The notes under the pieces: generated by a model | Database searches by the model: none | Told to the model about the DNA's origin: nothing | Seen by the model: only the letters and a program-made list of their open reading frames with translations | DNA from: an uncultured Candidatus Binatia bacterium | Lineage (GTDB): Bacteria; Desulfobacterota; Binatia; UBA9968; JAJDTQ01 | Assembly: GCA_965242525.1 (NCBI GenBank) | Contig: OZ251459.1 | Span: forward strand, 2,537,037 to 2,601,036 | Direction of reading: 5' to 3' | DNA length: 64,000 nt | Shown: in pieces, positions 28,749 through 33,933 of the stretch | How the letters are laid out: every line of letters begins with the position of its first letter | Position numbering within the stretch: the first letter of the stretch is position 1 | Translations under genes and position numbers: made by a program

Positions 28749-30848
28749 CTAACGCTTCAGGCCGAACAGGCCGAAGAGTTCTTCGTCGTTCATTCGGTCG
28801 GACAAGTCCAGCGACACGTCGTCGATGATCTCGTCGAACAGTTCCCGCTTGCGCTCCAGGACCTCGTCGATGCGTTCCTCGATGGTCCCGGAACAGGAAT
28901 ACTCGATGACGTTGACCTTGACCTTCTGGCCATAGCGGTGGCTCCGGTCTTCCGCCTGGCTTTCCACCGCGGGGTTCCACCATCGGTCCAGGTGGAAGAC
29001 GTAGGACGCCTCCTGCAGGTTCAGGCCCAGGCCGCCGGCGCGCAGCGACAGGATCAGCACCTTGTGCTCGTCCCGGGACTTGAACCGCTCGATGACCTCG
29101 GTGCGCTCCCGCTGGGGCATGTCGCCGGTGACGGTGAGCGGAGCGAAGTCCTGCAGGTAGTTGGCTGCGGCGCGCACCCCCGACGTGTCGCTTACGTACT
29201 GGGAGAACAGCAGCGCCTTGTGGCCCTGGTCCGCCAGTCGTCCCAGGCGGTCCCCGATGTCTTCCAGCTTGGTGGACTCCCCGGTCCTGGGGTCCGCGTT
29301 GCATACCTGTTTCAAGCGGGTAACGAGCTCCAGCACGTGCGGTACGCGGACCTCGGCCCCCAGCGACCTGAGGTAGATGATTCCCTCCTGCTCGGCCTTG
29401 TCATAGCTGTTGCGCTGGCTGGGGCCTAGGTCGATGGTCACCTTGGTCACCTGCTTGGGGGGAAGGTCTTCCAGCACGTCGCCCTTCTTGCGTCGAAGTT
29501 GCAGTTCGCCGTGCCGCCATCGCAATTCCACGCCCGGCCGGTAGTGTCTGGGGGGTCCGGAACCGTCGTGGTCCACGAACTCCAGGATCGAGGCCAGTTC
29601 CTCTTCGTCGTTCTCCACCGGCGTTCCGGTCAACGCCCAGGAGCGCGCCCTCCGCAACCCCTTCAGGGCGTCGCTGGTGTCGTTGCGGTTCTTGATGCGC
29701 TGCGCCTCGTCGGCCACCACCACGTCCCACGTCCTGCGGCGCACCGGGGATTGCGCGCCGCCGCCGAAGTCCGAGCGCAGGGTATCGTAGCTGACCAGGG
29801 TGACGTCCTTCTCCGCTCTCCATTGCCAGGCGCGGTCGGACGTGGAGCCGCGGATGACGATGGCGGAGAGTTCCGGCGCCCATTTCTCGATCTCGCGCCG
29901 CCATTGGTCCAGCAGCCCCGCGGGGGCCGCGACCAGGCACGACCGGACCTCCCCGCGGGCCCGGAGGATGCGCAGCGCAGCGATTGCCTGCAGCGTCTTG
30001 CCCAGGCCCATGTCGTCGGCGAGCAACAGTTGGCGTCTGTCCAGCAGGGCCCGGACACCCTCCTGCTGGAAGGGCATCAACTCTCCGGGCCATTCTAGTC
30101 GGACGTCCGGGTCCCGTGGGCGCGGCGCGGCGAGCACCGCCCACAGCCGCTCCGCCAGGGTCAGGCCGGACCGAAAGGCCGGCGGAGGCTCGTGGACGGC
30201 GTGGCCGTTCCCCGAACCGCGGTTGGCGGAGTATTCCGGGCGTTCGGGCAGCGAAGAGAGGCTGACGACCGCGGCCATCCCGGGAAGCGTCGTCATGGCT
30301 CTGACGCGCTCGTCGTCGAAGGCTTCGTCCAGGCATCTGGCGGTTCGGTCGAAAGGTTCCACGGGGTCGCCCCGGTCCATGATCTCGTCGAGGAGCCGGT
30401 CGGCCCGGGTCTCGCCGTCGTGGCGGTCCCCTTCCCAGAGCAGCCGGAAGCGCCCGCCGGCAGGACTGCGGTGCGCCGGTTGGGCGTGGGGTTGAAGCCA
30501 ATCCGTGCCGATACGGCAGAGGGGCAGCCCTACCCGGATTTCGTCGCGGAACGTGCCTTCCGGCACTTCGTCGGCCAGAGCCAGGATCAGTGCCGGCCGC
30601 GGGTCTGCGGCTCCGAACAGCGACTTCGCGAGGGACGACACGAGCGTTGGTTTCACGGGGTCCCGTTTCCCCGCGGTCTCGCGCCGCTCCATGCGGCTGA
30701 AGCAGAAGGCGAGGGGGTCGCCTCGAACCGATGTCTGGAACAGCGCGGCCCGCATGCCTTCGCCGCGGCTCTCCTCCATGAACCGCAGCCAGCCGATGGC
30801 GCCGGAGCCAGTGCTCCCCGCGCCCGGGTCGTGGAAAGGGATCGGCAA
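28749..30848 (-). CDS. SNF2/SWI2-family helicase with ~240-aa N-terminal domain of unknown function (gene D of four-gene cassette)
   Basis: Motifs LLADDMGLGKTLQ (I), VVADEAQRIKN (II), LTGTPVEN (III), LRAGGLGLNLQ (V) and NPAVESQAEDRSHRYGQ (VI). Confidence 0.85.
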   Translation of the reverse strand: MPIPFHDPGAGSTGSGAIGWLRFMEESRGEGMRAALFQTSVRGDPLAFCFSRMERRETAGKRDPVKPTLVSSLAKSLFGAADPRPALILALADEVPEGTFRDEIRVGLPLCRIGTDWLQPHAQPAHRSPAGGRFRLLWEGDRHDGETRADRLLDEIMDRGDPVEPFDRTARCLDEAFDDERVRAMTTLPGMAAVVSLSSLPERPEYSANRGSGNGHAVHEPPPAFRSGLTLAERLWAVLAAPRPRDPDVRLEWPGELMPFQQEGVRALLDRRQLLLADDMGLGKTLQAIAALRILRARGEVRSCLVAAPAGLLDQWRREIEKWAPELSAIVIRGSTSDRAWQWRAEKDVTLVSYDTLRSDFGGGAQSPVRRRTWDVVVADEAQRIKNRNDTSDALKGLRRARSWALTGTPVENDEEELASILEFVDHDGSGPPRHYRPGVELRWRHGELQLRRKKGDVLEDLPPKQVTKVTIDLGPSQRNSYDKAEQEGIIYLRSLGAEVRVPHVLELVTRLKQVCNADPRTGESTKLEDIGDRLGRLADQGHKALLFSQYVSDTSGVRAAANYLQDFAPLTVTGDMPQRERTEVIERFKSRDEHKVLILSLRAGGLGLNLQEASYVFHLDRWWNPAVESQAEDRSHRYGQKVKVNVIEYSCSGTIEERIDEVLERKRELFDEIIDDVSLDLSDRMNDEELFGLFGLKR

Positions 30849-30884
30849 TACGACATACCCTCCGGCGCAAGGGATGGCCGACCG

Positions 30885-32176: not shown

Positions 32177-33136
32177 TCAGGACAGTCGCACGAGGGAGGC
32201 GACGGGGTTGACCAGGCTCCTGTCTCGAACGTCGTCCATCACCCTGGTGCGCAGGGCCTGGTAGATGCCATAGCCTCTGGACCCGGGACTTTCGTCCACG
32301 AACTCGGAGTTGGCGGCCACCAACAGGAGGGTTCCCGACAGCCGGTCGATGTCGTCGATGAACTCGCGCAGCAGCTCGTAGTGGTCCATGGCCATGGCCC
32401 GGGTGTAGTACCGCTTGCCGTCCCTGGGGTTGCGGGCCAGGGTGACGCGGGAGTTGTCCAGCATGACGACGGTCCCGGCAAATCCAGCCAGGCGGACCCA
32501 GTGGAGGGCGGATTCGATGAAGTACCGGGCGGTGGTGCGGTTGATGCCGGTGTAGATGGAAAAGGGACGCACGCTGCTGACTCGCGTGTTGGCGCCGGTC
32601 AGCCAATCCAGTACGGGCTGGCCGTCGTACTCGCCGCGGTCACGAGTGTTTTCCATGAGGCAGAGTTGACTCATGGCCGCTCGGAAGTCCTTGGCCATCC
32701 GAGGGTTCTTGGAGACGCGCTCCTGTATTTCCGGGAGGATTGCCTGGAAGAAGAACCGCAAGTCGATGCCGTTGCGGTCGGCCACCGCGGCAAAGACGTT
32801 GCCGGACGCTCCGGGGTCCACGCCTTCGACCGCGTAACCCTTGTCGCCCGCCAGCCGCCGGATCAGCCGTCGGGCCAGTAGCCGCCAGTCCATGCGGCGA
32901 GCCAGCCCGAAGAAGAGGTCCTGCGGCATGTGCGCCCGCATGTCCGCGGCGTCCAGCGCCGCGAAGACGTAGTCCAGCTTCCGGCAGCGCTCGGCTACGG
33001 CTTCACGCAAGGCCGGTTTCAATTCGTCCTCGGTGACGGCGAACTTGACGGAGGCGCCGCCGTCCCTGACGAAAGCGGACAGGTACTCGCGGTCGATGTG
33101 CTGCAACCAGTCTCGCAGGGGGATGCGGTTCGCCAT
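32177..33136 (-). CDS. Hypothetical protein, apparent P-loop-less paralogue of the adjacent ATPase (gene B)
   Basis: 319 aa. AGFAGTVVMLDN aligns with AGFEGWVVLLDE of gene C. The position equivalent to Walker A reads VKFAVTEDELKP. Its ATG overlaps the gene A stop (TGATG at 33136). Confidence 0.6.
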   Translation of the reverse strand: MANRIPLRDWLQHIDREYLSAFVRDGGASVKFAVTEDELKPALREAVAERCRKLDYVFAALDAADMRAHMPQDLFFGLARRMDWRLLARRLIRRLAGDKGYAVEGVDPGASGNVFAAVADRNGIDLRFFFQAILPEIQERVSKNPRMAKDFRAAMSQLCLMENTRDRGEYDGQPVLDWLTGANTRVSSVRPFSIYTGINRTTARYFIESALHWVRLAGFAGTVVMLDNSRVTLARNPRDGKRYYTRAMAMDHYELLREFIDDIDRLSGTLLLVAANSEFVDESPGSRGYGIYQALRTRVMDDVRDRSLVNPVASLVRLS

Positions 33137-33933
33137 CAGTCGCCCTCGGTAAACCGGAGTCCGTAGTACTGGACGTCGCGGCCGTCCGGTCCGACGAAGG
33201 AGAACACGCCCTTGGAGCGCCGTGTGCCGGTGGACGACGGGAAGGAGACGGCCGCGCCCTGTTTCGTGCGTTCAGGGCCTTTCGTGTCCAGGATATACAG
33301 GTCTCTGGCGAAGTCCGTGCGGTCGTATTCCCGGCTGCTGCCCGGCAAGGAGGTGAACAGCCGGTAGATCCTTTCCAGGGGCACGACCCGCCCTGCGGTC
33401 CTCACCAGGCGGTCCGGGTTCTCTTCCCTGACGATGTCCGAGTACACGGCGTAGAGGGACTCGAGGAAAGCGCCTGACTGGTAGCGGCCGGGCTTCTCCT
33501 GGTTCTTCAACAGGACGTCCGCCAAATAGGACGGTCTGATGGAGGAGACCTTCTTCCTGTCGATCCTGACCGCGCGTTCGCCGGGCAGGATGCGCACCAC
33601 GGAGGGATGGGAGATCAGCCGGTCGTCCCGCTCGTGCACGTCCAGGTTTCGCTCCGAGGCGATGCGGCGCAACTCGGCCGAGTATCCGTCCCTCAGGTAC
33701 TGCTCTTCCTCGCCGTCCTGGAACGGCCAGGCCCGGACGGCGTTGGCCACGGTCTCCTCCAGGGAGCCCATCGCGCCGTCGAGCCTCCCCTGGGTCCTCT
33801 TCATGGCGGCAAGGTTCCCTTCCCTGGACGCCTTCTGCAACTGCTTGGCCAGCCGGATCAGTTCCCCGGCCGAATCCAGTGTCGATTTCGCAGCCCTCTC
33901 GGTATCGCTGAAGGCTTGTTCGAAGCTGTCCAT
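33136..33933 (-). CDS. Hypothetical protein, helical N-terminus, no recognised domain (gene A)
   Basis: 265-aa ORF, first gene of the co-directional tightly packed set A-B-C-D. Codon usage is host-like (G+C-rich third positions). Confidence 0.6.
   Translation of the reverse strand: MDSFEQAFSDTERAAKSTLDSAGELIRLAKQLQKASREGNLAAMKRTQGRLDGAMGSLEETVANAVRAWPFQDGEEEQYLRDGYSAELRRIASERNLDVHERDDRLISHPSVVRILPGERAVRIDRKKVSSIRPSYLADVLLKNQEKPGRYQSGAFLESLYAVYSDIVREENPDRLVRTAGRVVPLERIYRLFTSLPGSSREYDRTDFARDLYILDTKGPERTKQGAAVSFPSSTGTRRSKGVFSFVGPDGRDVQYYGLRFTEGD

Follow-up and report, generated by a model that had tools for sequence, protein, structure and literature searches.

A conserved and apparently undescribed cassette of an unnamed small protein, two BrxD-type ATPases and an SNF2 helicase in an uncultured Binatia bacterium, a candidate defence module

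In a 64,000-nucleotide stretch of contig OZ251459.1 (assembly GCA_965242525.1) from an uncultured Candidatus Binatia bacterium, called the window below, four co-directional minus-strand genes at 28749-33933 form a cassette that is real, conserved and apparently undescribed. In the order of transcription they encode a small protein that no library names (A), two members of the PF10923 (BrxC/BrxD) ATPase family (B and C) and an SNF2 helicase (D). The genes were delimited from a listing of open reading frames (ORFs) and by direct reading, and D is divided here into its N-terminal domain, termed Dn, and its motor:

33136-33933, minus strand: gene A, 265 amino acids
32177-33136, minus strand: gene B, 319 amino acids
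30885-32162, minus strand: gene C, 425 amino acids
28749-30848, minus strand: gene D, 699 amino acids, TTG start
30249-30848, minus strand: Dn, the N-terminal domain of D, about residues 1-200
28749-30098, minus strand: SNF2 motor of D, about residues 251-699

The stop codon of A overlaps the start codon of B (cTGATGg), B and C are 14 nucleotides apart with an AAGGA upstream of the ATG, and 36 nucleotides separate C from D, whose TTG start gives an MPIPF N-terminus that is conserved among homologues. The coordinates, the strand, the TGATG overlap and both gaps are as described in the original prediction, which had been made from the letters of the window and had taken the four genes for a fixed unit.

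What is conserved, however, is a trio. A scan of one genome per GTDB species (185,579 representatives, with the patterns used) gave 107 confirmed loci, of which 80 were kept, and a search of metagenome contigs that started from a distant subgroup of A, from a soil/sediment-type branch, gave at least 571. A, B and C are contiguous at all 80 genome loci, with B and C directly after A, and are present in every metagenome locus long enough to show gene order, which bears out the co-occurrence that had been proposed as a check. D comes next at about 70 of the 80 genome loci, 11 of which encode Dn separately in an ORF of about 180-200 amino acids, as do 9 metagenome loci. In the metagenome branch the fourth position is occupied by a split Dn with an SNF2 gene, by a ResIII/DEAD/XPB-like helicase, by a DUF3670-SNF2 protein or by nothing. 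At four loci, namely L085 (4059-6933), L100, L103 and L106, an SNF2 protein with a C-terminal Mrr_cat domain (PF04471, 2.7e-25) lies beside a split Dn ORF of about 200 amino acids; apart from this fusion, no recognisable nuclease was found in the cassette family. No other neighbour family is conserved beside the four genes among the 80 genome loci. The conserved unit is A-B-C with an exchangeable or dispensable helicase, and the fixed four-gene cassette has to be given up, since the helicase of relatives is split, swapped, fused to Mrr or absent. In loci with a ResIII/XPB-like fourth gene, A is directly preceded, on its own strand, by a conserved ORF of about 480-790 amino acids without a Pfam family (L124, 4519-6195; L125, 6544-7974; L136, 1128-3494), perhaps an additional part of this subtype.

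Regarding A, an exact look-up of the window's protein returned no record, and the family around it comprises 865 word-indexed homologues in 803 clusters at 50% identity, all of them stand-alone proteins of about 260 amino acids and none carrying a name; the label of orphan that the cassette had received does not survive these numbers. The statement that A has no nameable domain does stand, as no match was found in Pfam, NCBIfam, PADLOC or PHROGs or, by profile search, among PDB sequences, and a relaxed Pfam scan of 48 family members revealed no family and, even at E<=0.05, no TerB domain. The AlphaFold2 (AF2) model, with a predicted local distance difference test score (pLDDT) of 87.8, begins with a long helical hairpin (residues 4-68), continues in a small alpha/beta part and has a helix-helix-strand arrangement at its C-terminal end, and Foldseek found no significant fold for it (best E=0.39 in PDB and E=0.03 in BFVD). 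The residues in which the family varies least, R133-P134, Y203, F208, R210, D211 and G226, belong to the C-terminal region. Conservation of E87, D103 and D125-x-K127 in close relatives had suggested a PD-(D/E)xK nuclease, but only 59 of 127 diverse representatives (46%) have all of these residues, and the Foldseek hints in this direction are not significant (MutH, E about 2; an Mrr-domain protein, E=0.26). Because this motif is incomplete and its substitutions are scattered, A is not regarded as an enzyme.

B and C both belong to PF10923, the Pfam gathering threshold of which is 22.2 bits: B reaches 44.7 bits (1.1e-11, profile positions 149-331) and C 57 bits (2.2e-15), and their homologues at other loci carry the same precomputed annotation. 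The BrxD equivalog of NCBIfam (NF033438), with a cut-off of 350 bits, gives only 47.9 bits for C and 34.3 bits for B. In PADLOC, C matches BrxD (9.6e-13) and, over the P-loop only, SngB (4.6e-5, 20.7 bits). Among PDB sequences its best match is TnsC, a weak one (E=0.022 over the P-loop region), and entry 9zn5 is reached at E=0.13 only, also over the P-loop. The Walker A (GDFGSGKSH) and Walker B (VVLLDEIE) motifs of C are intact, and G69, G71, K72, S73, D240 and E241 are conserved in all 104 full-length members of a set of 106 sequences, distant branch included; motif reading, PF10923 and PADLOC agree with the earlier description of C as a BrxD-like ATPase.

B has neither a canonical Walker A nor the catalytic glutamate. 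In the same number of sequences, G26-G27-x3-K31 is conserved throughout (106/106, one with R at position 31) and the Walker B aspartate D227 is found in 97%, while position 228 is occupied by N, L, I or V and in no sequence by E. Since this position is never glutamate, B is probably a hydrolysis-dead partner of C, although it may still bind nucleotide. The original prediction had called B a dead-ATPase paralogue without a nameable domain. A degenerate partner of a live ATPase is indeed what the motifs suggest, but the idea of a close paralogue was rejected, as hhalign aligns only the Walker B strand of the two proteins with a probability of 19%, and a domain can be named from the PF10923 score. 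To judge from their sequences, B and C are members of one family that are only distantly related. No sequence match was detectable between B and the BrxB of PDB entry 9zn5.

The helicase D was described beforehand as a complete SNF2 ATPase with an unassignable N-terminal domain, and both parts of this description hold. The intact SNF2 core extends over residues 255-690 or so. Pfam places SNF2-rel_dom at residues 261-518 (4e-43, 148 bits) and Helicase_C at residues 533-640 (1e-19, 71 bits), and the motifs DDMGLGKT and DEAQ are intact and invariant across 60 homologues; D accordingly has the N-lobe, the Helicase_C domain and the intact motifs I and II by which an SNF2 translocase is recognised. 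Its best PADLOC matches are ZorD (1.8e-78), then DpdE and DrmD, and a partial match to the BrxHI profile is far weaker than those to ZorD and DpdE. The NCBIfam equivalogs are scored at 138 of 1500 bits for ZorD, 80.9 of 950 bits for DrmD and 67.6 of 500 bits for DpdE. With the full-length AF2 model (pLDDT 69; 60-89 in the Dn region), Foldseek returned only SNF2 cores, among them SsoRad54 (1z63, 1.8e-24) and ZorD (8qy7, 1.3e-19), and no fold for Dn. Dn has no match in Pfam, NCBIfam, PADLOC, PHROGs or PDB, and a relaxed Pfam scan of 23 members found no family. Its predicted order is beta-beta-beta-alpha-beta-alpha-beta, with no conserved catalytic constellation, and its median identity to relatives is 39%, whereas A, B, C and the SNF2 core reach 59-73%. 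A query with the N-terminal 250 residues of D alone retrieved only 10 proteins, all truncated or split, an outcome apparently due to limits of the word index. No nuclease domain was found in the window's D.

All 80 genome loci come from metagenome-assembled genomes (MAGs), with hosts in Binatia, Dehalococcoidia and other Chloroflexota, Alpha- and Gammaproteobacteria, Acidobacteriota, Acidimicrobiales and Nitrospirales. The SNF2 core keeps an identity of at least 61% between members from Chloroflexota, Proteobacteria, Acidobacteriota, Actinobacteriota, Nitrospirota and Binatia; for A, B and C the identities between phyla are 48-92%. The identity of the SNF2 core between phyla implies horizontal transfer, and the pattern as a whole speaks for a constrained core that has spread horizontally and in which one surface, Dn, evolves fast. 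Several lineages of the close clade (Binatia, Dehalococcoidia, Caldilineaceae, Vicinamibacterales and Nitrospirales) we take to be typical sponge symbionts; together with the record names and an ankyrin-repeat gene that adjoins D at one locus (L168, 15187-16527), the taxa suggest that many close-clade hosts live in this way.

In one lineage (L161-L166) the cassette, a PIN-domain gene and a gene for an unknown protein of 216 amino acids stand between ribD and ribE (about 8770-17280 in L161), interrupting an otherwise canonical nrdR-ribD-ribE-ribBA-ribH-nusB cluster. This marks a discrete insertion in which the module arrived as cargo, possibly accompanied by a toxin-antitoxin pair. Such behaviour as an insertable unit is also what would be expected if the cassette served a mobile element, in maintenance, target-site selection or anti-defence, in the manner of TnsC-type AAA+ regulators with DNA motors. 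The weak TnsC match of C and an IS110 transposase about 9 kb from the cassette at one locus fit this explanation, but no integrase, transposase or tRNA is conserved beside the cassette at the 80 loci, and no homologue of A was found in 72,556 PLSDB plasmids, 50,697 INPHARED phage genomes or the IMG/VR contigs, so that a mobile-element function appears highly improbable.

No description of the cassette was found in the literature on BrxD with SNF2, DUF2791, PF10923 or BrxD-like proteins, and the profile libraries Pfam and PADLOC, which the original prediction had singled out as a check, and likewise NCBIfam, place it in no named system. Judged by sequence, it is not a bacteriophage exclusion (BREX), Shango, Zorya, defence island system associated with restriction-modification (DISARM) or Dpd system, as each of these systems has defining partners that the cassette lacks and equivalog cut-offs that its proteins fall far short of. 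In its mode of action it would come closest to two known arrangements, the type 2 BREX dyad of BrxD and helicase and the Zorya effector arm.

In type 2 BREX, BrxD and the helicase BrxHI form a tight linked dyad, and BrxD has been proposed to load or activate the helicase (PMC12839542). The cassette likewise has a stand-alone PF10923 ATPase of about 425 amino acids next to a gene for a superfamily 2 (SF2) helicase. Unlike type 2 BREX, it has no PglW, PglX, PglY or PglZ nearby, its helicase is of the SNF2 type whereas BrxHI is Ski2/Lhr-like, and it contains A and a second, dead PF10923 protein, both absent from BREX. The set that defines BREX, namely PglZ, PglX/BrxX or a 3'-phosphoadenosine 5'-phosphosulfate (PAPS) reductase, and BrxC/PglY in the same locus, has no member within 5 kb of the cassette in the window, and no such family recurs within +/-10 kb at the 80 loci. 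The BrxB-BrxC pair of BREX, in which an inactive nucleoside triphosphatase (NTPase) is paired with an active ATPase and a sensor or scaffold role is proposed (PMC12839542), resembles B and C in joining a dead NTPase-fold partner to a live ORC/Cdc6-like AAA+ ATPase, but B and C are both BrxD-sized and not BrxC-sized, and B lacks a detectable sequence match to BrxB.

With Zorya the cassette shares a helicase for which ZorD is the nearest profile and a structural match, and some relatives of D carry Mrr_cat as ZorD does. However, it lacks the ZorA/ZorB motor and ZorC, the equivalog score remains far from the cut-off, and the window's D has no nuclease and an N-terminal domain unrelated to that of ZorD. 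Shango consists of the TerB protein SngA, the ATPase SngB and the helicase SngC. The cassette likewise unites an ATPase and a helicase with a third protein of small size, and C has a weak match to SngB over the P-loop; that match is marginal, though, A has no TerB domain, and Shango has no counterpart of the dead ATPase. Neither the partners that define DISARM (DrmA and DrmB/DUF1998, together with DrmC or a methylase) nor the other genes of Dpd are conserved at the loci.

These likenesses raise the question of whether the cassette is an accessory or remnant of a known system, such as a type 2 BREX dyad or a Shango- or Zorya-like arm, that acts in trans with partners encoded elsewhere in the genome. 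The PF10923 membership of B and C, the BrxD-helicase pairing known from type 2 BREX (PMC12839542), the resemblance of D to ZorD and a defence-rich host genome, with Type III restriction-modification (R-M), PDC-S01 and DUF499 genes in the same window, would all be accommodated. Yet no family of PglW, PglX, PglY, PglZ, TerB or ZorA/B recurs within +/-10 kb at the 80 loci, the BrxD, ZorD, DrmD and DpdE cut-offs are missed by the distances given above, the helicase is SNF2 and not a Ski2/Lhr-like BrxHI, and the rib cluster shows the module moving as a self-contained unit. An accessory role is, on this evidence, improbable.

Around the cassette, the window contains the following further features:

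27645-28685: epimerase gene, flank of the cassette
33934-34158, no strand: intergenic region of 225 nucleotides between A and the divergent glyoxalase gene
34159-34827: glyoxalase gene, divergent, flank of the cassette
34894-35970, minus strand: ORF overlapping the methylase gene, downstream of it, no Pfam or PADLOC match
35559-36533, minus strand: Type II N6/N4 methylase, in a patch of 0.56 GC (guanine-cytosine) content
3014-6160, minus strand: Type III R-M Res gene, PADLOC REase_III 3e-144
6789-9974, minus strand: Type III R-M Mod gene, PADLOC MTase_III 2e-193
13360-14568, plus strand: protein of 402 amino acids of the PDC-S01 candidate system, PADLOC 8.7e-94
57150-60215, plus strand: full-length DUF499 ATPase, PADLOC DUF499 1e-212 and HmaC 2e-54

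By its position, the region at 33934-34158 is presumed to be the promoter region of the operon; a scan with the sigma-70 consensus gave no match there. The GC content of the cassette (0.65-0.70) is similar to that of the remaining window. The host-like codon usage claimed for it is confirmed in so far as its composition is near that of the host, but the GC content at third codon positions of A, B and D (0.83-0.86) is somewhat below that of the immediate neighbours (0.90-0.94). Within 5 kb the flanks hold the epimerase, an HbpS-like protein, a cupin and the glyoxalase, and library scans, in agreement with the earlier reading, found no PglX, PglZ, BrxC, TerB or nuclease at this distance.

The three other defence modules reported for the window were all matched in PADLOC. 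As judged from the matches, Res and Mod (3014-9974) make up a complete Type III R-M pair. The genes upstream of the PDC-S01 protein, at 9655-11214 and 11255-13312, have no PADLOC match. The third is the DUF499 ATPase, a hallmark of DUF499-centred BREX-related (BR/Hma) systems (PMC12839542). Of the Type II R-M pair said to adjoin the cassette, the methylase is real, whereas the ORF at 34894-35970, presumably its restriction enzyme partner, has no database match; the pair is specific to the window's genome and is not found beside the cassette in other genomes. All these modules lie 1.6-24 kb from the cassette and are not conserved partners. As to the remainder of the window, low-GC patches occur at 1001-3000 and 6001-7000, an ORF of 1160 amino acids at 20054-23536 (minus strand) has no PADLOC match and lies where the GC skew is -0.17 to -0.18, and the skew is strongly positive at 52-53 kb and 56-57 kb.

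The argument from a defence neighbourhood, which the original prediction had drawn from this window, does not clearly generalise. Among the PADLOC matches listed, specific defence genes account for about 9 of the 132 immediate neighbours of the cassette (Type IIG, I and III R-M, Cas5/6, Cas1, AbiLi, a DRT reverse transcriptase and AriA), which speaks for a defence role. Several other observations weigh against it. Flanks are mostly housekeeping genes, as they are in four annotated contexts, and 132 control genes 8-10 kb away show, among the matches listed, no fewer PADLOC families than the immediate neighbours. No modification enzyme that could serve self/non-self discrimination is conserved near the cassette, no recognisable nuclease or toxin was found in the window's version or at the 80 genome loci, and no helicase-like gene follows C in 9-10 of the 80 genome loci and in several metagenome loci. 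Furthermore, the conservation of A, B and C is higher than is usual for immune sensors, and the plasmid and phage collections in which A has no homologue have to be counted on the same side.

Much of this would be expected of a non-immune DNA-transaction module, in which the ORC/Cdc6-like AAA+ pair would load the chromosome of the host with an SNF2 remodeller, serving processes such as repair, the restart of replication, remodelling coupled to transcription or the organisation of the nucleoid. The housekeeping flanks at most loci, the host-near composition, a syntenic position within Binatia, the strong conservation of A, B and C and the lack of nuclease and methylase in most versions are consistent with such a role, which is set against a very patchy distribution (107 matches in the 185,579 species representatives), identities of 50-70% or more between phyla that imply horizontal transfer, a helicase that has been exchanged, has disappeared or has been joined to an Mrr nuclease, the arrival of the cassette with a PIN gene in the rib cluster of one lineage, and the fact that PF10923 proteins are otherwise tied to BREX/Pgl. 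A non-immune role is, on balance, unlikely.

Gene order and conservation, the integrity of the motifs, the family assignments, the modularity of the helicase and the spread across phyla are direct observations, from which we infer that the cassette is a DNA-targeting defence system against phage or plasmid DNA, a reading to which we give somewhat better than an even chance. It is favoured because of the families of the parts, the swapping of helicase and nuclease, the horizontal spread, the patchy distribution across phyla, the hypervariable domain and the insertion as a unit. The family of B and C was otherwise found described only as BREX/Pgl ATPases, and the closest profiles to D are the defence SNF2 proteins ZorD, DpdE and DrmD.

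On the defence reading, the core would consist of A and the PF10923 pair of ORC/Cdc6-like AAA+ proteins, live C and dead B, joined to an exchangeable SF2 helicase, and A-B-C might act as a sensor/loader that licenses the helicase on foreign DNA. This proposal, each step of which is reasoned by analogy, is made because of the BrxD-BrxHI dyad, in which BrxD is the proposed helicase loader (PMC12839542). A, B and C would first assemble on DNA, with B and C as a heteromeric AAA+ switch and A contributing a coiled coil and a C-terminal region that probably binds DNA or a partner. Binding and hydrolysis of ATP by C would then license the recruitment or loading of D, for which the variable Dn could be the docking or specificity surface. 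D would finally translocate along the target duplex and block replication or expression, and in the variants with an Mrr nuclease the target DNA would also be cut. More broadly, A-B-C could be the core of an unrecognised immune class, in which the adaptor A and an AAA+ heteromer load interchangeable and mostly nuclease-free SF2 motors onto foreign DNA and which would be abundant in uncultured soil bacteria and in MAG lineages presumed to be sponge symbionts; this wider claim is tentative and, as a whole, rather doubtful. Such a class would have been missed by defence screens because it is found only in MAGs and metagenome contigs and in no complete plasmid or phage genome.

If the cassette is a defence system, it would extend the list of such systems by a widespread family: at 50% identity A falls into no fewer than 800 clusters, and the loci number in the hundreds across soil-type metagenomes and the MAGs of lineages resembling sponge symbionts. 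It has been found only in uncultured lineages, which are beyond the reach of phage-challenge screens. A study of sponge metagenomes counted PF10923 as a phage growth limitation (Pgl) gene that occurred in sponges but not in seawater (PMC5099237); part of this signal, read as Pgl/BREX, may come from the cassette instead. A defence role would also make the cassette a simple setting for the role of BrxD-type ATPases, a question still open in type 2 BREX, as a helicase and a single adaptor are all that accompanies the ATPase pair here, the methylase and PglZ machinery being absent, and the variants that lack the helicase, carry another one or are fused to Mrr offer a natural dissection of the module. 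The cassette would then stand for an ATPase-plus-helicase theme in defence with two orphan components, A and Dn.

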